Positions 25,335-44,545 of a stretch of DNA of 64,000 bases are shown here, piece after piece. Source of the DNA: an uncultured delta proteobacterium. GTDB lineage: Bacteria; Desulfobacterota; Desulfuromonadia; Geobacterales; DSM-12255. The notes beneath the pieces are model-generated. The model had not been told where the DNA came from. It searched no databases and saw only the letters and a program-made list of their open reading frames with translations. How positions within the stretch are numbered: the stretch's first letter is position 1; the number at the start of each line of letters is the position of its first letter. Both the position numbers and the translations under genes were made by a program. The stretch is from contig CAWBBV010000007.1 in NCBI GenBank assembly GCA_963787125.1, forward strand, positions 192,001 through 256,000, read 5' to 3'.

Positions 25335-25637
25335 TAGCTTGCCATCCTTCCCCGTACCTACCGTAAATTCCATATTCTTCGCGCCTTTCTTCTACCTTTC
25401 CTAGTCCCCCGCACCTCAAATCTCAAACTTGATCCCCGATCCCAATTCCCAGATCACGACTTGACTCAAAACAGTTCCCAGTTCCCGCCTTTGCTTCACA
25501 ACAGTTCCCTGATCCCAGATCCCGCCTTTCAGCCTTTGCGTATCTACAGTCTAAGGCCTTTTCACCTGTTTGCTTCCGCAGTCAATCTGCTGTAAAGTAT
25601 TGGCATTATCAAAATATTATCCCTTCAAGGTATAGAG

Positions 25638-34751: not shown

Positions 34752-36089
34752 TCAGGGAGTCAGATAGATATTCTTAACAGTGACCTTCGGCTCCAAGTTT
34801 ACAATCGAACGCTTTAAAGCATTACTTTCCCCAACGACAACAAAATGAATATGATCTGGCAGTTCGTCAAAATCCTCTTCTTTGTTGGCCGCCCTAAATG
34901 TTAGAAAATAGTCTCCAGGTGCAAGCCACATCCTCAAGTAAACTCTCCCCTCAACCACACTCCCTCTTTTTTGTGGATTTATAGCAACTTTTTGAATATC
35001 ACTATTAGTTGAAAATAGAAACAAACCCATTGCATTAGTTATTGGATATCCAACATGGAGTTTATCTATGTCGACATAAGTGAGTATTTTAGTGAAAAAG
35101 GTGTAATGTTTACCTGATTCTAGGATGGTAGTTCTGTTCCCGTCATTATCAGTTATCCCACAATCAATGATCTCTGCTTTTTTCTGACCATCCCAGGTTG
35201 TTAATTTAGCTTCAACCTGCTTTTTCAGCTTTTCATTGTTATGGATTACTCCAACTTGATTCTTGCTTGTTTCTGAAAGACATTCGGATGTGTCTGATAA
35301 TTCGTCGTCAAAAGAATTCATTGTTCTATCTTTTACCATCACATGATCTAGCATTAGTCTTTGATAAACTCTTGTGACGTTTTTAGGTATCCCATGTTCT
35401 ATAACTTTACCGCCACTCAATAGATAAGCATAATCGCACAGAATATTTACTGAATCCAACCCATGTGAAACAAACAGTATAGTTTTGTTGCTTTCATGAA
35501 ATGATTCAAGCTTTGCGTAACACTTTCGTTGGAATCTTATATCTCCAACAGCAAGAGCTTCGTCAACAATGAGAATATCCGCATCAACGTTTATTGCAAC
35601 GGCAAATGCAAGTCTTATGAACATGCCACTAGAATAAATCTTTACTGGTTGATAAATAAAGTCTCCGATATCAGCGAAAGAAAGTATATCGTCTAGTTTT
35701 TCGTCGATTTCTACTCTGGAATGCCCCATAAGTGTGCCATTAAAATAAACATTCTCAAGCCCGGTCAACTCGGGGTTAAACCCTGCACCAAGTTCTAATA
35801 GTGCCGAGACTTTACCGTTTACTATAACACTCCCGCTTGTAGGAGTCAGGATGCCGGTTATTGCTTTCAGTAGTGTAGATTTACCAGAACCGTTCATTCC
35901 AATGATACCAACGGTCTCTCCTCTCCTTATCTCAAAGCTAACATCATCAAGTGCATGGAAATCTCGATGATATTTTATCCCGAAAGGATTCAACGACTCC
36001 TTGAAACGGTCCAGAATTGAATCATAAAGTTTATAAGTTTTTGTGAGATTATTTATTTTAACTGCCACTTCCCCAGTCATTAACTGCAA
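34752..36089 (-). CDS. wzt: Wzt-type polysaccharide ABC exporter ATPase with C-terminal carbohydrate-binding domain
   Basis: GMNGSGKST, LELGAGFNPELTG, YSSGM..RLAFA, DEALAVGD. Confidence 0.9.
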   Translation of the reverse strand: MQLMTGEVAVKINNLTKTYKLYDSILDRFKESLNPFGIKYHRDFHALDDVSFEIRRGETVGIIGMNGSGKSTLLKAITGILTPTSGSVIVNGKVSALLELGAGFNPELTGLENVYFNGTLMGHSRVEIDEKLDDILSFADIGDFIYQPVKIYSSGMFIRLAFAVAINVDADILIVDEALAVGDIRFQRKCYAKLESFHESNKTILFVSHGLDSVNILCDYAYLLSGGKVIEHGIPKNVTRVYQRLMLDHVMVKDRTMNSFDDELSDTSECLSETSKNQVGVIHNNEKLKKQVEAKLTTWDGQKKAEIIDCGITDNDGNRTTILESGKHYTFFTKILTYVDIDKLHVGYPITNAMGLFLFSTNSDIQKVAINPQKRGSVVEGRVYLRMWLAPGDYFLTFRAANKEEDFDELPDHIHFVVVGESNALKRSIVNLEPKVTVKNIYLTP

Positions 36090-36160
36090 CCCCCAGCATC
36101 AATTATATTGAAACTTACATTTCAAAGATGTTGACATCATAACGTTGTGAAAGCCTAAGT

Positions 36161-37204
36161 TCAACATTTTAACTTAATCAACCCGCCATATTCCTCTAAC
36201 TTCTTTGGTCTATTCATGTATCCTGCCCAGCCGTTGGCCAAACATGTTTTGCACATAGAAGAATTTAGTTGCTTGAATTTACTGATATCATCAGGGGTCA
36301 TAGATAGAAACTCAACGCTTTGTTTGTAAAAGTCGTAACAAGAACAGCAAAAAACAAGTGTAGCATCCGCATCAATAACAAGGAACTCAGACTGTTTGCA
36401 TGTTTGAGCATTTGCGTTCAGTTGGAGCGCTTGCAAAATAAATTCGGTAAAAACTGAATTATCTACAAAGCTTTTGATGGGCTCTTCTAAGCAGTTATTG
36501 CACCAATCGCGAATTGCTTCAATAGATCCAAGGTGCCCGTAATATGGTATTATCCCAATTCCGAGTTCATTGCAGAGGGTCTTAGCTGATTCGTATTGAA
36601 ACTCGTTGTGGCGATAACGGTGCCATCGAATCGCCACATTCAATGGCCTAATCTGGTTATGGGCTAACATTGCTAAACTCTTTAGATTTCTAATAACCAG
36701 GTTAAAATCACCTTTCCTATGGCTCAGGTTGTAAATGCCCTGCGTAATGCCGGAGATTGACACCTGAACGAAATCAAGACCCGATCTTGCAATTTCAGAC
36801 ATATCACAATCAACCGATAGTGAAGTAGAAATACCTATTTCCTCTAACCCAGACTCCCTTGCAATCTTCACAATCGCTGAAAACTGAGGATGCAATAAGG
36901 GTTCTCCCCAATTGCCCATTATCAGGGTTTTGATGTGAAATTCTTCGCGAATTTTTACAAAGCATTTACGCGCAGTTTCCAAATCTAATACAGTTGTTGG
37001 ATGCTGAGTAACTGTATTTCTTCCAACAGGACAAGGAATGCATTTTACCGGACATCCACTCACAGTTTCTAGGTAAGCAAACGTATATTGGTTAACTATT
37101 TCAATTGCATTATTATCGTTTTTTTCCCGTAAAGCACTCTTTGAAGATTTCCCGAATAATTTTTGCACTACATTAAATATTTTGCGAGTCTCATTTCGAA
37201 TCAT
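36161..37204 (-). CDS. Radical SAM protein with Cys-rich C-terminus
   Basis: CPVKCIPC (CxxxCxxC), GEPLLHP, C-terminal C..CCSC..CKTC. Confidence 0.8.
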   Translation of the reverse strand: MIRNETRKIFNVVQKLFGKSSKSALREKNDNNAIEIVNQYTFAYLETVSGCPVKCIPCPVGRNTVTQHPTTVLDLETARKCFVKIREEFHIKTLIMGNWGEPLLHPQFSAIVKIARESGLEEIGISTSLSVDCDMSEIARSGLDFVQVSISGITQGIYNLSHRKGDFNLVIRNLKSLAMLAHNQIRPLNVAIRWHRYRHNEFQYESAKTLCNELGIGIIPYYGHLGSIEAIRDWCNNCLEEPIKSFVDNSVFTEFILQALQLNANAQTCKQSEFLVIDADATLVFCCSCYDFYKQSVEFLSMTPDDISKFKQLNSSMCKTCLANGWAGYMNRPKKLEEYGGLIKLKC

Positions 37205-37321
37205 TTAAGCTCCATACTTAATATTGAATGCGTAATAAATAAGAAGAGGCGATTACATTCTTAGATGTAAACGCCTCCTTTGCAATTAGCATATGCTTGA
37301 ATTTACACTTTAAATTTATAC

Positions 37322-38068
37322 TTAGTAAGCTGTAAAGCTAGTCCTTTTCCATGAATTTGTTGCTGAACATACATACAAGAAGCCATTCGGAGCATCAAGA
37401 ATCAGGTCACCAACCGTACACGTTGCGTTATTTGCTGGGGCTGCAGGGTGATTTGAAAGACGTAGGCGACCATCACTCGCAATTCTCATGCGTTCAAGTT
37501 TTACATTCTGGTTAGCACCGGTCCAAAAATTGATATTCATTGGAGCATTACCTTGAGAATATGTTCCGGGATCAAGAGTAAAAATTAAGCTAGCACTAGC
37601 AGTATAACCGCCGCTATTTGCTATATCAATATTGCCGTCATATGCTAGTGCGTGGAATGCACCTATATTTGCGCCAGAGCCTGGAACGCCGGGAGCTGCT
37701 TCAGTTCCAGACGCTTTTTTAATATTAATAATTGCAGCAGCTCCACCAGCAGCATACTGACTGATTGTAAGACCACGGTCAAATGGTGCCGTTGGTTCTG
37801 AAATATGTAACGAAGTAAGTGGATTGGTGGTTCCAAATCCGAATTTTTTTGTTGCGGGCTTAAACATGAGGTTTGACGCAGACATTTGACCGTCCGCAGC
37901 AATTGTTAAACCTGGTGTCGTGACAACGCCTGTATCGCTGACCTTAAATACATCCGCTGTTCCACCTGCATTCTTCACAATCAACTTATCCGCACCCATC
38001 GCCGGAACCGCGAGAGCAACAACCGCTGCTGCTGCCAGCATTACTTTACAAATCTTCTTCATAACCAT
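37322..38068 (-). CDS. Secreted fibre-like hypothetical protein
   Basis: Signal peptide; FGFGTTNP, ERMRIASDG, CTVGD..FLYVCSATNSWKR. Confidence 0.65.
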   Translation of the reverse strand: MVMKKICKVMLAAAAVVALAVPAMGADKLIVKNAGGTADVFKVSDTGVVTTPGLTIAADGQMSASNLMFKPATKKFGFGTTNPLTSLHISEPTAPFDRGLTISQYAAGGAAAIINIKKASGTEAAPGVPGSGANIGAFHALAYDGNIDIANSGGYTASASLIFTLDPGTYSQGNAPMNINFWTGANQNVKLERMRIASDGRLRLSNHPAAPANNATCTVGDLILDAPNGFLYVCSATNSWKRTSFTAY

Positions 38069-38142
38069 CCTCCTAGTTTTTGTTAAGAGTTATCGGGCTC
38101 TATTTAGTTTTAACGCCGTTATTTAACAACCATAGCCTTTAT

Positions 38143-38313
38143 TTCACGTAATGCTTGAGACTTTATCAGGAAATTATGCCCAATGCAAATAGCTATTTTT
38201 CAAAGGAAACGTTTAATAGGTCATGGGCTGACGAGAGTATCTTGCATTGTTAATGCCGAAGTGGAGGGGAGGGGGCAGAATCGTTTATGGATGAAACAAA
38301 GTCTTTCTCTTTA
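38143..38313 (-). promoter_or_regulatory. ~170-bp promoter-bearing block, copy 1 (TTGCAT-N17-TAAAGT at 38188-38160)
   Basis: Near-identical to ~40850-41010; promoter boxes conserved in both. Confidence 0.65.
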
Positions 38314-39063
38314 GCCACGGATGTCACGGATGTTCACGGATAAAACCTTTAGAATCTTCTTGGTTAAAACCTTATTGGTTAGCCTTACATCCGTGTTAAT
38401 CCGTGTAATCCGTGGCAAAGAATTTTTTCTGAAGACCTTTAGCCACGGATGTCACGGATGTTCACGGATAAAACCTTTAGAATCTTCTTGGTTAAAACCT
38501 TATTGGTTAGCCTTACATCCGTGTTAATCCGTGTAATCCGTGGCAAAGAATTTTTTCTGAAGACCTTTAGCCACGGATGTCACGGATGTTCACGGATAAA
38601 ACCTTTAGAATCTTCTTGGTTAAAACCTTATTGGTTGGCCTTACATCGGTGCTAATCCGTGTAATCCGTGGCAAATGCCTTTTTTCTGAAGACCTTTAGC
38701 CACGGATGTCACGGATGTTCACGGATAAAATCTTTAGAATCTTCTTGGTTAAAACCTTATTGGTTGGCCTTACATCGGTGCTAATCCGTGTAATCCGTGG
38801 CAAATGCCTTTTTTATCTGAAAACCTTTAGCCACGGATGTCACGGATGTTCACGGATAAAATCTTTAGAATCTTTTTGGTTAAAACCTTTATTGGTTAGC
38901 CTTACATCCGTGCTAATCCGTGTAATCCGTGGCAGAAAGCCTTAATTCTCTAAATCTTTAGCCACTGATGTCACGGATGTTCACGGATAAAGTCTTTAGA
39001 ATCTTCTTGGTTAAAACCTTCTGGGTTGGCCTTTCATCAGTGTAAATCCGTGTAATCCGTGGC
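38314..39063. repeat. Hairpin-repeat array 1: six ~128-131-bp units
   Basis: Units start at 38314, 38442, 38570, 38699, 38830, 38961; each GCCACGGATGTCACGGATGTTCACGGAT...ATCCGTGTAATCCGTGGC. Confidence 0.95.
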
Positions 39064-39079
39064 AGAGAATTTTTTCTGC

Positions 39080-39457
39080 TTATAATACGAATCGTTTAAA
39101 TTCAGCACGTTCACTGCCGAAATTTACCAAGAGGCCAACCTGGATTCCAGTGGCTTTCAAGTAGTTTATCAACTGTGCCTGATGTACCGGCTTCAGGGAA
39201 TCCACTGCCTTCAACTCAACGATAACCTGATTCTCAACCAGAATATCTGGATAATAAAGCCCAACATCTTCACCCTTGTAGATGACATGCAGCTCCTTCT
39301 GCTCTTCCAACAGCGAGCCTCTCAGTTGAAGCTCCCTTACCAGTGCCTTCTGATAGACTGCTTCAAGAAAGCCCGGTCCGAGAATAGAATGAACCTCATA
39401 AATTGCTCCGATTATCCTGGAGGTAAGCTCTTCAGCGATCAAATTCGTGCAATTCAT
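39080..39457 (-). CDS. GxxExxY protein (PD-(D/E)XK nuclease-like)
   Basis: GPGFLEAVYQKAL (GxxExxY), YPDILVENQVIVELK, AQLINYLKATG..GLLVNFG. Confidence 0.92.
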   Translation of the reverse strand: MNCTNLIAEELTSRIIGAIYEVHSILGPGFLEAVYQKALVRELQLRGSLLEEQKELHVIYKGEDVGLYYPDILVENQVIVELKAVDSLKPVHQAQLINYLKATGIQVGLLVNFGSERAEFKRFVL

Positions 39458-39484
39458 TGAATAAACCTCTTCTTAAAACCCTTA

Positions 39485-40037
39485 GCCACGGATGTCACGG
39501 ATTAACACGGATAAAGTCTTTAGAATCTTCTTGGTTAAAACCTTATTGGTTAGCCTTTCATCAGTGTAAATCCGTGTAATCCGTGGCAAAAAAGCCTTTG
39601 ACTAAAAATCCTTAGCCACGGATGTCACGGATTAACACGGATAAAACCTTTTGAAATCTTTTTTTGGTTAAACACTTTATATTCTGTTTTTCATCGGTGT
39701 AAATCCGTGTAATCCGTGGATAAAGGCCTTTGACTTAAAACCCTTGGCCACGGATGTCACGGATGAACACGGAAAGAACCTTTTGACATCTTTTTTTGGT
39801 TAAACACTTTAGATTCTGTTTTTCATCGGTGTAAATCCGTGTAATCCGTGGATAAAGGCCTTTGACTTAAAACCCTTGGCCACGGATGTCACGGATGAAC
39901 ACGGAAAGAACCTTTTGACATCTTTTTTTGGTTAAACACTTTAGATTCTGTTTTTCATCGGTGTAAATCCGTGTAATCCGTGGTTAAAAGCATTTGACTT
40001 AAAACACTTATCCACGTATGTCACGGATGCCCACGGT
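39485..40037. repeat. Hairpin-repeat array 2: four units plus a degenerate left arm
   Basis: Units at 39485, 39615, 39747, 39879; half unit at ~40011 abutting the HEPN stop codon. Confidence 0.93.
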
Positions 40038-40039
40038 GA

Positions 40040-40510
40040 TCACAAGATTGTTTCATCAGTTGTGAACTTTCCGGCATAAGTGTTGATTCGCTTCACACTA
40101 TCGAAAAGAAGTGGCGTCGTCCGCAGACTCTCGATATAAATGTTCGTGATATCTTCCTCTGACTCGGCGTATTCATGGGCAATTCTGTTTCGAAGCATGC
40201 GAATCTGAGCAAACTGTTGTGCTGATGAGATGAGCCCTTTTTTCTCGGCACGATTTATGGCATCACGGATGGTTTCAGGAGCTTCATCAAGATCCAGAAT
40301 ATCAATCAGCTTGATAGCCTGTTTAATAATAAGGTCGGACAACCTGGCATACTTGGAGGTCAATGATTCGAAGCGGTCTTGCTCCTCCCGATCATATTCA
40401 CCTTTGATTCCGATCGAGAGGCACTTTTCATATGAGTATTCCAGCGTTTCATCTGCTTTACGCAATCGGTCCAGCAGCTCTTTTAAATATGCGCTCTCTT
40501 CTTTTCCCAT
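40040..40510 (-). CDS. HEPN-domain (nucleotidyltransferase substrate-binding type) toxin
   Basis: RDAINRAEKKGLI, RNRIAHEY (RX4HXY). Confidence 0.8.
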   Translation of the reverse strand: MGKEESAYLKELLDRLRKADETLEYSYEKCLSIGIKGEYDREEQDRFESLTSKYARLSDLIIKQAIKLIDILDLDEAPETIRDAINRAEKKGLISSAQQFAQIRMLRNRIAHEYAESEEDITNIYIESLRTTPLLFDSVKRINTYAGKFTTDETIL

Positions 40511-40794
40511 AATTTAACCGTCCCCTTTGCCAGCACCATCCGGACAAAAGTATTTTTAAGTTCACTTCCGGTCAGAACAAAGTCAAGCTTCTGCTCGTCA
40601 ATATGTTGAAACAACTCCTCCTCTATAAGGAAAAGCATGTTTTTATCCACGACATCCGATTTAATAAGGATATCGATATCGCCCCCCCTTTTGGAGTCAT
40701 CGAGCCTTGATCCGAACAGGTGAATTTCGGCGTTTTCATCGAACATGAGGATTGCGTTTATTATAGCATGCCGCTCTTCTTCAGAAATCCTCAT
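40483..40794 (-). CDS. MNT nucleotidyltransferase antitoxin
   Basis: LFGSRLDDSKRGGDIDIL. Confidence 0.88.
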   Translation of the reverse strand: MRISEEERHAIINAILMFDENAEIHLFGSRLDDSKRGGDIDILIKSDVVDKNMLFLIEEELFQHIDEQKLDFVLTGSELKNTFVRMVLAKGTVKLWEKKRAHI

Positions 40795-40849
40795 TTAATT
40801 GCCCCTTGCTGTAAATACTTTTTGGGTTTAAAACCTTCTCGCATTGCCT

Positions 40850-41010
40850 TTCACGTAATGCTTAAAACTTTATCAGGAAAATTCACCCGATGCAAATAGC
40901 GATTTTATCAAAGGAAACGTTTAATAGGTCATGGGCTGACGAGAGTATCTGGCATTGTTAATGCCGAAGTGTGGGGGGATCGTTTATGGAAAAACAAGTC
41001 TTTCTTTTTA
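40850..41010 (-). promoter_or_regulatory. Promoter-bearing block, copy 2 (TTGCAT-N17-TAAAGT at 40895-40867)
   Basis: Direct repeat of 38143-38313. Confidence 0.65.
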
Positions 41011-41770
41011 GCCACGGATGTCACGGATGAACACGGATAAAACCTTTTGAAATCTTTTTTTGGTTAAACACTTTAGATTTTGTTTTTCATCGGTGTAAAT
41101 CCGTGTAATCCGTGGCTAAAGGCCTTTGCCTTAAAACCCTTGGCCACGGATGTCACGGATGTTCACGGATAAAATCCCTATAATCTTCTTGGGGTAAACC
41201 TTCTTTGGTTAGCCTTTCATCAGTGTTAATCCGTGTAATCCGTGGCAAAGGCTTTTTTTCTGAAAACTCTTGGCCACGGATGTCACGGATGAACACGGAT
41301 AGAACCTTTTGAAATCTTTTTTTGGTTAAACACTTTAGATTTTGTTTTTCATCGGTGTAAATCCGTGTAATCCGTGGCTAAAGGCCTTTGACTTAAAACC
41401 CTTGGCCACGGATGTCACGGATGTTCACGGATAAAATCCCTATAATCTTCTTGGGGTAAACCTTCTTTGGTTAGCCTTTCATCAGTGTAAATCCGTGTAA
41501 TCCGTGGCAAATGCTTTTTTTCTGAAAACTCTTGGCCACGGATGTCACGGATGAACACGGATAGAACCTTTTGACATCTTTTTTTGGTTAAACACTTTAG
41601 ATTTTGTTTTTCATCGGTGTAAATCCGTGTAATCCGTGGCTAAAGGCCTTTGACTTAAAACCCTTGGCCACGGATGTCACGGATGTTCACGGATAAAATC
41701 TTTACAATCTTCTTGGGGTAAACCTTTTTCGTTTAGCCTTTCATCCGTGTTAATCCGTGTAATCCGTGGC
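41011..41770. repeat. Hairpin-repeat array 3: six units alternating two loop types
   Basis: Units at 41011, 41143, 41273, 41405, 41535, 41667. Confidence 0.95.
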
Positions 41771-41795
41771 AGAAAGCTTTTCACGTTGCTGTTCC

Positions 41796-43100
41796 TCAAT
41801 CCTTCTTCTGCTTCTCCATTGCATCATCCATAACCTTATAGGCACAGAACTCGCCACACATGGTGCAGGCGCCATGGTCGGCAACCCCAGATTCTGCACG
41901 GAGCTGACGGGCTTTATCCGGGTCGAGCGCCAGGGCGAACTGCCCCTCCCAGTCCAGTTTTTTGCGGCATTTGGCCATGGCGATGTCCTTGTCGATGGCG
42001 CCTTTCACCCCTTTGACGATATCGCCGGCGTGGGCGGCAATGCGGGTGGCGATGACGCCGTCGCGGACATCCTGGACTGACGGGAGTTTCAGGTGTTCGG
42101 CCGGAGTGACATAACAGAGGAAGTCAGCGCCTTCTGCGGCGGCGACTGTGCCGCCGATGGCGCAGGTGATATGGTCGTAGCCGGGGGCAATATCGGTTAC
42201 CAGCGGCCCGAGAACATAAAATGGTGCACCGTGGCAGAGGCGTTTCTGAAGGAGAATGTTGGCTTTTATCTGGTTGAGCGGCATATGACCCGGCCCTTCG
42301 ATCATGACCTGGACACCGGCATCCCAGGCCCGTTGGGTGAGTTCTCCCAGAAGGATAAGCTCCTGGATCTGGGCCCGGTCGGTAGCGTCGGCAAGGCAGC
42401 CGGGACGGAAACCGTCGCCGAGGGAGAGGGTCAGGTCGTACTCCCTGGATATCTGCAGCAGTTTGTCGAAATGCTCGAAGAGCGGGTTTTCAGCGTTATT
42501 GTAGGCCATCCATTCGATGGTGAAGGCGCCGCCACGGGAGACAACATCCATGATCCGCCCTTCGTTCTTCATCCGCTCGACGGTGCTTCTGGTAACTCCG
42601 CAATGCACGGTGATGAAGTCGACACCGTCTTCGGCGTGTTTGATGATGCCGGCGAACATCTCTTCAACCGTCATATCTACAATCGCTTTCTTGCGCACTC
42701 TTACCGCATCGAGGGCCGCCTGGTACAGTGGTACCGAGCCGATGCAGGCGCTTGTTTCGGCAATGATGGCACGGCGGATTTCGTCGACAGGGCCGCCGGT
42801 AGAAAGATCCATGATGGCGTCAGCGCCGTATTTAACAGCAGTCCGCGCTTTTTCAAGCTCTTTGGAGATGTCGAGATCGTCCGAAGATGAGCCGATGTTG
42901 GCATTCACCTTGGTGCGCAGCCCCTTGCCGACCGGGAGCGGCATGCCGTTCAGATGTTTGATGTTGTGGCAGATAATGATATTGCCGGCGGCAATTCCGT
43001 CACGGATAAATTCAGGTGACACCCCTTCAGAGGCGGCGGCAGCGGTCATTTTCTCGGTTATTATTCCTTTGCGGGCGTAGTCAAGCTGGGTTGTTGCCAT
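41796..43100 (-). CDS. thiC: Phosphomethylpyrimidine synthase
   Basis: [41 protein letters not shown]. Confidence 0.97.
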
Positions 43101-43111
43101 TTAATTGCTCC

Positions 43112-44545
43112 TTAAAGTTTCATTTCGTCTGCAGCTGCATAGTGATTCACCGGTCCATGGCCGTTGCCTAGCGGCTCTGCCAGCCGGATTGCTGCGGTTA
43201 TGAACTGTTTGGCTTTCCGGATTGCTTCAGGCAGAGGATATCCCTGAGCTAAAAAAGAGGCGATTGCTGCCGAAAGGGTACAGCCGGTGCCGTGGGTGTT
43301 GGTGGAGATGATTCTTGGTGAGGCAAAGCGGCTGAAAGTGTTGCCGTCAAATAACAGGTCGACAGACTCTTCGCCGGCAGCATGCCCCCCCTTTATCAGG
43401 ATATTGCGTGCTCCCGCCTTATGCAGCGCTCTGGCCGCTGCCTGCATATCCGCAGTAGTGTTGATGCTGATGCCGGTCAGCGCTTCTGCTTCCGGGATGT
43501 TCGGGGTCAGAAGGTACGTCAACGGCAGCAGCCGCTCTTTCAGGGAGGTGACAGCTTCCCTGCCGATCAGGTCTGCGCCCCCCTTGGCAATCATGACCGG
43601 ATCAACGACCAGCAGCTTCTTGTTATAAAAGGAGAGCCTGTCAACAATGACATTGATAATAGCGGCAGAAAAAAGCATGCCGGTCTTTACCACGTCAATC
43701 GGGATGTCTGAGAGGACCGCCTCCAGCTGCGCGGCGACAAACTCCGGCGGAGTCGGCTGAATACCGCTGACGCCGAGACTGTTCTGTGCAGTCAGCGCTG
43801 TGATGACCGATGCGCCGTAGCTCCCCAAAAGGGTTATGGTCTTTAAGTCTGCCTGGATCCCGGCGCCGCCGCCGGAATCACTCCCTGCTATTGTGAGGAC
43901 CGAACCCTTAGGATAGCGCCGGTTGCGGTTGAAGAGCAGCTGCAGTTCTGCCGCGGCAATTGCCGGTTCAAGGTGGGACATGACCGCCGAGATCACCGCG
44001 ATTGCGTCCGCGCCGGCAGCAATGACTGCTGCGGCGTTATCCCGCTCTAGCCCGCCGATGGCGACAATCGGCAGCGTCACTACGGCTCTGGTCCCGGCAA
44101 GCAGCTCAACCCCGGCGAGATGTTTTATCGCTTTACTCGCTGTCGGGAAGATGGCGCCAAAGCCGATATAGTCAGCTCCTGCTGCCTCGGCTTGTGCAGC
44201 CTCTTCCGGGGTGTGAGTCGAAATGCCGATAAGCTTGTCATTGCCGAGAAGCTGCCGCGCCGCCGCAGGGTCGCCGTCCTCCTGGCCGAGATGGACACCG
44301 TCGGCGTTCAGCTCAAGTGCCAGCAGCGGCTCGTCATTGACGATGAAAAGAACTCCGGCTGTGCGGCATAATGTTGCCAGCTCTCGCCCCAGCCGCAGCT
44401 TAGCGGCGCTGTCCAGTTCCTTGGCGCGGAACTGGAGCGCACACGCAGATGGCAACGCCTCGCTGACACGCGCCAGCAAGTTTTCCTTGTCATCGGTGAT
44501 AAGGTAAAGCCCTTTAAGCTGCGCTGTTTTGCTGACTTGCCTCAA
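43112..44545 (-). CDS. thiDE: Fused thiamine-phosphate synthase / HMP(-P) kinase (ThiE-ThiD)
   Basis: LYLITD, ADGVHLGQED, VAIGG; then IAGSDSGGGAGIQADLK, THGTGCTLS; TTG start after gggag. Confidence 0.92.
   Translation of the reverse strand: MRQVSKTAQLKGLYLITDDKENLLARVSEALPSACALQFRAKELDSAAKLRLGRELATLCRTAGVLFIVNDEPLLALELNADGVHLGQEDGDPAAARQLLGNDKLIGISTHTPEEAAQAEAAGADYIGFGAIFPTASKAIKHLAGVELLAGTRAVVTLPIVAIGGLERDNAAAVIAAGADAIAVISAVMSHLEPAIAAAELQLLFNRNRRYPKGSVLTIAGSDSGGGAGIQADLKTITLLGSYGASVITALTAQNSLGVSGIQPTPPEFVAAQLEAVLSDIPIDVVKTGMLFSAAIINVIVDRLSFYNKKLLVVDPVMIAKGGADLIGREAVTSLKERLLPLTYLLTPNIPEAEALTGISINTTADMQAAARALHKAGARNILIKGGHAAGEESVDLLFDGNTFSRFASPRIISTNTHGTGCTLSAAIASFLAQGYPLPEAIRKAKQFITAAIRLAEPLGNGHGPVNHYAAADEMKL

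Follow-up and report, generated by a model that had tools for sequence, protein, structure and literature searches.

We analysed a 64,000-nt stretch of DNA from an uncultured delta proteobacterium (hereafter the window; contig CAWBBV010000007.1, here C7, positions 192,001-256,000 of assembly GCA_963787125.1), in which an intact gene of the GxxExxY family lies among three arrays of tandem hairpins whose arms are built from a short repeated box, CACGGAT. GxxExxY genes combined with hairpin repeats of this design occur across many phyla, and the combination would seem to be a type of mobile element, made of a gene and its repeats, that has not been described so far, a variant of the kind to which REPtrons (repetitive extragenic palindromic, or REP, sequences with their transposase gene) and miniature inverted-repeat transposable elements (MITEs) belong. 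On balance, and with modest confidence, we read the GxxExxY nuclease and its boxed inverted arms as a small selfish element, and the window as a site where the gene-less form of that element has undergone local tandem amplification. A first-pass annotation of the window had proposed an undescribed protein-repeat system here, and its individual claims are taken up below with the results that bear on them.

Hairpin arrays and the intact GxxExxY gene

The features on which the argument turns are the following:

38309..39078, + strand: array 1, six hairpin units with loop type A and a 128-bp period (Tandem Repeats Finder, 6.0 copies, 93% matches)
39080..39457, - strand: intact GxxExxY / PDDEXK_3 gene, 125 aa (TIGR04256 2e-44, PF13366 1e-43)
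39472..40036, + strand: array 2, 132-bp period, 4.3 copies (Tandem Repeats Finder), with full units A, B, B, B
41011..41781, + strand: array 3, six units, B and A' alternating, with a 130-bp period, 5.8 copies (Tandem Repeats Finder)

The three arrays of like orientation and ~128-132-bp period described in the first-pass annotation are thus confirmed. Together they contain 16 full hairpins and one half arm, all on the same strand, and these 16.5 units are the largest array that we encountered; array 2 ends in a truncated, degenerate left arm (~40010-40036). Each arm consists of three CACGGAT boxes separated by a 2-nt and a 3-nt spacer (GT and then GTT, GAA or TAA in the left arm; NNA and TA in the right arm), and the loop between the arms is 46-49 nt long, in agreement with the arm sequences, spacers, and ~48-nt loop reported earlier. 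When at most two mismatches are allowed, the double box CACGGATGTCACGGAT has 34 matches in the window, 33 of which lie within 38316-41768, compared with an expectation of 0.02 derived from 100 shuffles; the 33 matches correspond to 17 left arms and 16 right arms in a single orientation. Across the genome the heptamer CACGGAT is not enriched (478 occurrences observed versus about 521 expected), and its non-randomness resides only in this clustered, phased arrangement.

Each unit folds into three helices of 7-9 bp parted by 2x2 and 3x3 internal loops, with a z-score of -6.2 to -8.2 on either strand and as either RNA or DNA. The arms are, as had been claimed, much better conserved than the loops: among the 16 units the left arms share a mean pairwise identity of 92.5% and the right arms 93.6%, whereas the loops reach 69.7%. 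The linkers between units measure 24-27 nt in 13 of 15 cases. Array 3 is also read by Tandem Repeats Finder as a 262-bp period (2.9 copies, 97% matches), which indicates two alternating unit subtypes and, given the 97% identity at this period, recent amplification. Because of this identity between two-unit periods in array 3, and because the loops of units 1 and 2 in array 1 are identical, the arrays are best read as recent expansions of gene-less units by unequal recombination or slippage. A CRISPR array, in which unique spacers part identical short repeats, was considered and rejected, as here the loops and linkers recur along with the arms, and arm orientation alternates.

The GxxExxY gene occupies a linker between units, where the first-pass annotation had placed it: the last arm of array 1 lies 16 nt away on one side, and on the other a gap of 27 nt separates the gene from the first arm of array 2. 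The gene is preceded by an AAGAGG ribosome-binding site 8 nt upstream. Its product matches TIGR04256 with 150.7 bits (cut-off 35), covering positions 1-116 of 116, and PF13366 with 148.7 bits (cut-off 22). Eight positions do not vary among 17 aligned members of diverse origin, the window protein among them: G20, E23, and Y26, which make up the G..E..Y motif; D62, E72, and K74, the catalytic residues; and Q86 and N103. The PD-(D/E)XK-like residues noted from the sequence are therefore borne out by conservation, and the fold agrees with them: an AlphaFold2 model of the window protein (predicted local distance difference test score, pLDDT, 95.5) has a restriction-endonuclease-like alpha/beta fold, and among solved structures Foldseek places it nearest to Cas4 SSO0001, LHK-Exo, lambda exonuclease, and the resolvase Hjc (E 4e-4 to 1e-2). 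A sequence search of the Protein Data Bank returned no relative of the window protein, its single match (E 0.3) being a chance one, and PADLOC and PHROGs contain no family for it. Since the catalytic residues are invariant and the modelled fold is confident and PD-(D/E)XK-like, the window protein is most likely an active, minimal PD-(D/E)XK nuclease.

Boxed arms around GxxExxY genes across genomes

The genome from which the window comes (4.2 Mb in 30 contigs) encodes six GxxExxY genes. Inspection shows boxed inverted repeats directly beside every one of the six, with a different box at each gene:

window gene: CACGGAT
C24 gene: GCGGAT
C1 gene (C1:455352): GAGCAAC
C8 gene: CACGAAA
C7:264675 gene: GCAGAG
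C6 gene: CGGAT/CTGAT

All boxes are variations on the theme C-R-C-R-R-A-K.

To score flanks in other genomes, the 220 nt upstream of each gene were aligned to the reverse complement of the 220 nt downstream. The best-matching genes of 30 genomes, one from the window's genome and one from each of 29 relatives, have a median score of 21.25; 21 of them score at least 17, and 29 exceed the 95th percentile of the controls, which comprised shifted windows at the same loci (n=114, median 8, maximum 17), shuffled flanks (n=150, maximum 11.5), and random sites in the window's genome (n=1500, maximum 14). High scores extend beyond the phylum, as all 11 genes from five genomes of other phyla (one each from Verrucomicrobiota, Planctomycetota, Bacteroidota, Chloroflexota, and Acidobacteriota) score 12.5-33.5. 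A further 20 genes from distant genomes of the window's own phylum include 13 that score at least 15 and 17 that score at least 12. When unique genes are pooled, those of the five other phyla included, 71/94 score at least 15, compared with none of the 1500 random sites above 14, and 83/94 score at least 12. A general lack of flanking repeats among homologs, which the first-pass annotation had named as grounds for abandoning the idea, is thus not what we observe. Among the 71 high scorers, 52 genes lie inward between their arms, with the purine-rich strand of the boxes upstream, while eight are outward and 11 are ties.

Presence of the gene and presence of the arms are also associated between genomes. 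PF13366/TIGR04256 is found in 71/201 sampled genomes of the phylum and in all five genomes from other phyla. In a set of 200 genomes from the phylum, all with a completeness of 90% or more, triple-box arms (CACGGAK-N1-3-CRCRRAK-N1-3-CRCRRAK) occur in 31/70 with a GxxExxY match versus 10/130 without one (odds ratio 9.5, Fisher p 4e-9), a comparison in which related genomes are not independent, arms adjoining the genes themselves add to the count, and repeat-flanked genes may drop out of fragmented assemblies. The exact triple CACGGAT box is present at no fewer than 127 loci in reference genomes from many phyla. In another genus, the order at orthologs of the window gene is one solitary arm, the gene, and a run of three or more hairpins in tandem (period 127 bp), so the layout of a gene with an adjoining array is not peculiar to the window; this element adjoins a polysaccharide ATP-binding cassette (ABC) transporter gene, identified by eye from its translated end. 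Clustered or tandem GxxExxY genes, 1.1-1.6 kb apart, were seen at G035:C3:169508-172251 (L155), G115:C32:27330-30526, and G100:C1:96550-120171.

The type of box follows the protein. With 68 labelled rows assigned to 11 box classes by our own regular expressions (8 arms were left unclassified), the box class requires 21 changes on the protein tree, whereas 200 shuffles of the labels required 45.7 on average and never fewer than 40. Box class thus clusters on the tree, as the first-pass annotation expected of a box sequence that covaries with protein phylogeny, and this is the pattern predicted if the protein reads the box. We also considered a residue-to-box rule that set proteins with GFLE apart from those with GLLE; on reading the gene-by-gene table it had several exceptions and was dropped.

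Arm architecture differs between protein families as well. All 77 GxxExxY arms with a clear period repeat at 8-10 nt. The same genomes contain, at the same kinds of site, a second class of small gene in inverted arrays of short repeats, which encodes a four-helix-bundle protein (TIGR02436, '23S rRNA intervening sequence protein'); of the 26 genes of this class that could be scored, 20 reach at least 15. Their arms are built differently: the repeats are heptamers placed back-to-back, with period 7 in 32/38 arms, in contrast to the spaced boxes of GxxExxY arms, and the enclosed protein is not a nuclease. The heptamers include GGGACTG, GTAACGG, GTGAGGA, and GGTGATT (L208-L235; C1:78720-79255 in the window's genome). 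Based on these periods, arm architecture goes with the enclosed protein family, which a single shared trans-acting factor would not predict. Taken as sequence comparison, the results argue for a gene-repeat partnership with behaviour like that of REP sequences and their REP-associated tyrosine transposases (RAYTs), and we regard this partnership as well supported.

Gene-less hairpins and mobility of the arms-plus-gene unit

The arms-plus-gene unit is mobile in another genome of the phylum. Genome G100, which belongs to another family, carries two copies of an element that are 96% identical over 473 bp and located at unrelated loci, and the stretch common to both copies is exactly arms plus gene. 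At the first site G100 reads ...AAATGTT-AATTTT-[element]-AATTTT-CATACAC..., where its congener G060 reads ...AAATGTT-AATTTT-CATACAC...; the second site shows the same pattern in the opposite orientation and is empty in G060 and G163, the latter of which carries a 97% identical copy elsewhere. Derivatives with internal deletions that keep both ends are present in G060:C4 and G133:C37, which shows that in the genus of G100 the gene-less form derives from the gene-bearing one. The AATTTT flanks, the empty sites, and the deletion derivatives together establish mobility of the unit, and the marks of a transposable element or MITE (unrelated loci, empty sites, a direct repeat, and derivatives) are accordingly found across G100, G060, G163, and G133.

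Gene-less hairpins are dispersed through the window's genome. A generic detector of arms (at least three copies of a 6-mer at 8-11-nt spacing) gave 176 raw hits, merging into 82 arms, versus four raw hits in the locally shuffled genome, and most of the detected arms belong to the CACGGAT and GCGGAT families. Beyond the window there are about 10 CACGGAT loci and about 10 GCGGAT hairpins. Solitary CACGGAT hairpins lie in the spacers trpG|trpD, trpC|trpB, and trpB|trpF; GCGGAT hairpins flank etfB on both sides, and a GCGGAT element with its own gene lies between cusB-like and cusA-like genes. The last of these spacers measures 511 bp in the window's genome, where it contains the GxxExxY element, versus 88-116 bp in genomes of the same genus. 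The spacers cusB|cusA, trpG|trpD, trpC|trpB, and trpB|trpF hold other boxed hairpin families or none in congeners (L179 1310-1820 compared with L198, L201, and L196; the junctions of L188 compared with L328 and L332), and these operon spacers are therefore niches that are repeatedly colonised, with turnover.

The GCGGAT hairpins (on C2, C5, C16, C24, and C27) have fixed ends, AATAGAAC...GTTCTATT, and termini common to all copies, AATAGAACGCGG...CCGCGTTCTATT; their outer flanks, AAACCTT and GCCTTTG, are asymmetric and do not form direct repeats. The outer flanks of the CACGGAT units in the window (AAAACCCTT ... AAAGGCCTTTG) resemble those of the GCGGAT hairpins, and the two families may share a common target or a common ancestry. 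Two other repeats were observed near these hairpins. Fourteen perfect tandem copies of the octamer ACCCTGAA are located at C24:157395-157507, ~3 kb from the GxxExxY element of the cus operon. Another palindromic repeat, with the stem AGTTATTTTCTGC...GCAGAAAATAACT, lies beside a CACGGAT hairpin at C11:69871-69956 (L188 3072-3157) and has many 80-90% identical copies in same-genus genomes without CACGGAT hairpins.

In the mechanism that we propose, the complete form of the element would be a GxxExxY PD-(D/E)XK gene bracketed by inverted arms of two to four boxes (theme C-R-C-R-R-A-K, here CACGGAT) that are 8-10 nt apart, or about one helical turn. Several copies of the nuclease could then bind successive boxes along one side of the DNA, whether this is duplex or hairpin, and may cut at or near the ends of the arms, from which copying, insertion, or recombination would start. 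Gene-less hairpins could be mobilised or maintained in trans, and the growth of the three arrays in the window, next to the gene that resides there, may reflect slippage or unequal recombination among units. As GxxExxY genes mostly point the same way as their neighbours, they are probably transcribed from the operon around them. Co-location, the pattern of boxes among protein clades, and the conserved catalytic residues all suggest that the protein may bind or nick the hairpins; it may also drive their spread, as the first-pass annotation had it.

Several points weigh against this proposal, the main doubts being the hairpins in genomes where no gene was found, the elements of the same layout that lack a nuclease, and insertion by a hydrolase. 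Triple-box arms occur without a GxxExxY match in G164 (35), G111 (9), and G097 (4), and in G074, which has 45 CACGGAG arms, the single intact gene examined bears other boxes. The first-pass annotation had counted equal abundance of the repeats in genomes without the gene against its idea, and the many arms of G164 and G111, where no gene was detected, weaken that idea. Four-helix-bundle genes are found also in genomes lacking GxxExxY, and since these genes occupy analogous arms and do not encode a nuclease, the enclosed open reading frame need not be the mobilising enzyme. A hydrolytic PD-(D/E)XK nuclease alone cannot join strands, and insertion needs host repair or another enzyme. CACGGAT boxes occur in at least six separate protein clades, so that the mapping of box to protein is not one to one, and inheritance of gene and arms as a unit predicts the clustering of boxes by clade too. 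Eleven of the 94 pooled genes score below 12. For the window's own CACGGAT family we find presence and absence at trp spacers; neither this family nor the GCGGAT family shows a convincing target duplication, the direct repeat TAAAGGC flanking one trp-spacer hairpin only. The window gene itself sits in a linker between hairpins and not inside one. Finally, of the cargo capture suggested in the first-pass annotation, what stands is that toxin-antitoxin genes lie beside arms.

Some of these points fit an alternative that we consider rather unlikely, in which the boxed hairpins belong to the host or are extragenic elements independent of the gene (REP-like stabilisers of mRNA, or sites for nucleoid or global regulators of the IHF/HU type) or are moved by a factor acting in trans. 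GxxExxY genes would then be passengers that settle within or next to hairpins, as four-helix-bundle genes and toxin-antitoxin pairs would, and the protein might recognise the boxes as a mere landing site or not at all, without driving their spread. The abundance of arms where no gene was detected is in line with this, as are the four-helix-bundle genes in analogous arms, the arms that punctuate toxin-antitoxin cassettes in G008:C24 and in an Anammoxibacter contig, and the different hairpin families that occupy the same operon spacers in congeners, as in a general niche with turnover; a regulator-binding hypothesis is, moreover, already in print in the accessible part of a genome analysis (PMC2700814). 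What speaks for an active role of the protein is that the build of the arms and the type of box go with the particular protein family and clade that they enclose, that what moves in G100 is precisely the gene with its arms, the gene-less copies being deletion derivatives of this unit, that most genes show the inward geometry, and that the catalytic residues are conserved.

It is also conceivable, though we judge it improbable, that the arms act as RNA: a long stem around the open reading frame would form in the operon transcript, and RNase III would cut out or stabilise a selfish mRNA. The model for this is the biology of rRNA intervening sequences, which form stems in 23S rRNA, and the tandem hairpins in the window would be RNA-processing or stabilising modules. 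The four-helix-bundle family, which takes its name from these intervening sequences, is laid out alike; the arms reach directly up to the ribosome-binding site and the stop codon; and folding is highly stable (z -6 to -8). In the 24 cases in which both neighbours share a strand, the gene is on the same strand in 20 and on the opposite strand in four, a co-orientation that fits read-through expression and the RNA-stem model alike. However, the arm mismatches show no G-U bias (59 G-U-compatible on the sense strand versus 51 on the antisense strand, p 0.5), and half of them are transversions (112/222). The boxes are conserved in sequence and do not covary, the spacers between boxes are unpaired, and both strands fold equally well. 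A permissive Rfam search of 36000-44000 returned only chance matches to microRNA hairpins, far below gathering scores, and the AATTTT-flanked insertion is left unexplained by an RNA function. The lack of G-U bias, the proportion of transversions, the conserved boxes, and the unpaired spacers favour recognition of a DNA sequence rather than of an RNA stem.

Related systems, neighbouring genes, and biological meaning

The closest likeness to the selfish element proposed here is the REPtron. REP sequences are short (20-40-nt), GC-rich, imperfect palindromes with a conserved 5' GTAG head. As in the association of REP sequences and bacterial interspersed mosaic elements (BIMEs) with RAYT genes, a single small gene lies between inverted copies of the repeat that belongs to it, many gene-less copies reside in intra-operon spacers, tandem clusters have alternating arms as BIMEs do, and a genome may contain several repeat families, each with its own paralog. 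The anatomical part of the RAYT/REP analogy drawn in the first-pass annotation, namely flanking repeats, dispersed gene-less copies, and local tandem clusters, thus holds. The differences are that the protein is a PD-(D/E)XK nuclease rather than an HUH/Y1 transposase (PF01797), that the arms consist of two to four boxes at 8-10-nt spacing with no GTAG head, and that a 6-bp direct repeat flanks the G100 insertions of the boxed element. The seven Y1_Tnp genes of the window's genome lie elsewhere, none of them at a CACGGAT cluster.

MITEs and minimal insertion sequences such as IS200/IS605 share with the boxed element a unit of this size (~470 bp), terminal inverted arms, a single small gene, deletion derivatives that keep the ends, sites that are empty in relatives, and a short direct repeat where the element inserts. 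Unlike them, the boxed element encodes no DDE, HUH, or serine/tyrosine recombinase; its sole gene specifies a hydrolytic nuclease fold of 115-130 aa, and its termini are iterated boxes. Other PD-(D/E)XK enzymes are tied to mobility, including TnsA of Tn7, the Rpn/YhgA 'putative transposases', and the homing endonuclease I-Ssp6803I, which have the same catalytic fold and cut DNA at element ends or homing sites. The GxxExxY protein has no sequence-level relation to these, and neither a partner transposase nor an intron context accompanies it.

Boxed paired repeats themselves have been reported before. According to the accessible part of the 2009 analysis of Geobacter metallireducens by Aklujkar et al. 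(PMC2700814), that genome has multicopy intergenic sites in which 7-9-nt repeats stand three to five in tandem, each site having a partner on the opposite strand at a distance that varies: class 1, GTTGCTYN, with 24 pairs; class 2, TCTCCGTS[Y], with 21 pairs; and class 3, MTYCTGA, with eight pairs. One such site is next to trpB2 and one between proB and proA, and the sites were proposed to be targets of unidentified global regulators such as IHF/HU (PMC2700814). Class 2 is the complement of CACGGAGA boxes that we find in relatives, and class 1 matches the GAGCAAC boxes of gene C1:455352 in the window's genome; the window units and their dispersed copies have the form described, in the portion available, for the paired multicopy sites of classes 1-3. 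That portion names no associated gene family and no mobility (PMC2700814). Multicopy sequences are present in 12% of intergenic regions of G. bemidjiensis, as stated in the accessible text of PMC2996986, and the part of a 2012 survey of PD-(D/E)XK proteins that we could consult lists PDDEXK_3 as 'Unknown' (PMC3424549). A literature search on GxxExxY, PDDEXK_3/PF13366, TIGR04256/TIGR02436, and Geobacter multicopy sequences, in sources that were in part accessible only as extracts, found passing mentions of GxxExxY and no link of the protein to repeats. The system was called undescribed in the first-pass annotation; that description suits the protein-repeat link and does not suit the boxed paired repeats, which were published in 2009 (PMC2700814).

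The following features adjoin the arrays:

38140..38312: leader-like segment, copy 1, directly preceding array 1
40040..40510, - strand: HepT-like (HEPN) toxin gene, a weak match (PF01934 3.9e-5; NF047751 2.6e-5, below its cut-off)
40483..40794, - strand: nucleotidyltransferase (MNT-like) gene (PF01909 5e-5; PADLOC PDC-S09 8.8e-5)
40850..41010: leader-like segment, copy 2, directly preceding array 3

The MNT-like gene overlaps the HepT-like gene, and the pair sits between arrays 2 and 3. We regard it as a neighbour of the repeats rather than as an established part of the element. Toxin-antitoxin genes also occur between boxed arms in G008:C24:29800-35217 (ParD/ParE, CcdA/CcdB, PIN, DUF2442, and UPF0175) and in the Anammoxibacter contig (L027 900-3200; FitA/PIN and HicA/HicB), and in both of these every cassette has arms of a single orientation behind it, often with several box families in a row.

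This arrangement invites comparison with an integron, in which the hairpins would be attC-type sites at which a tyrosine recombinase captures GxxExxY and MNT/HepT cassettes. The units are indeed imperfect palindromes of ~105 nt in one orientation, similar in structure and length to attC sites and likewise beside small accessory genes (toxin-antitoxin genes lie between arms in the window, in G008:C24, and in L027), and the genome encodes two IntI-type integrases (TIGR02249, above cut-off; C4:161732-162667 and C23:106715-107650). The core sites of attC have the consensus R'' (RYYYAAC) and R' (GTTRRRY), and with this consensus none of the 16 units has a paired R''/R' core on either strand. The two integrase genes are on C4 and C23, whereas the window is on C7, and no boxed arms were found near them; most linkers are 24-27 nt long and hold no cassette; and solitary hairpins lie inside the trp and etf operons. 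The IntI/attC analogy of the first-pass annotation therefore fails, and an integron-like cassette array, already contradicted by the tests made, is very improbable.

The leader-like segment is ~175 bp long, its copies are 84% identical, and it has only these two copies in the genome. On the - strand, copy 1 forms the 5' region of a secreted-protein gene (37322-38068) and copy 2 lies upstream of the MNT/HepT-like pair, and the segment may represent a promoter or leader that was duplicated. A riboswitch or a CRISPR leader was considered and not adopted, as Rfam gives no match and the genome holds just the two copies. The gene at 37322-38068 (- strand) encodes a protein of 248 aa with a signal-peptide-like N-terminus that matches no Pfam or NCBIfam family; its C-terminal 50 residues have a weak likeness to the phage tail family phrog_17312 (E 1.4e-4). 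A 30-bp tandem repeat at 25446-25514 in the window (2.3 copies, 77% matches) is unrelated to the hairpin arrays.

PF13366/TIGR04256 is a large orphan family, and a defined DNA partner would make its function directly testable. A simple, variable box code beside nearly every copy of the gene raises the question of which residues read which box, and draws attention to a nuclease of very small size in which box specificity differs between paralogs. The link between gene and repeat would reinterpret the multicopy 'regulator sites' noted in Geobacter since 2009, and would provide a second protein-repeat system, independent of RAYT/REP, in which the origin, spread, and operon integration of extragenic palindromes can be studied. 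A wider proposal is more tentative, and we give it somewhat less than even weight: GxxExxY proteins may be the sequence-specific nucleases of an unrecognised superfamily of minimal mobile elements (~470 bp, with AATTTT-like sites) that seed REP/BIME-like boxed palindromes in at least six phyla, with box specificity diversifying along with the protein and with the four-helix-bundle elements as a sister class that reads its own heptamer arms. If this proposal is correct, both large orphan families, GxxExxY and the four-helix-bundle proteins, would gain a function, and the 'unidentified global regulator sites' of Geobacter would be identified.

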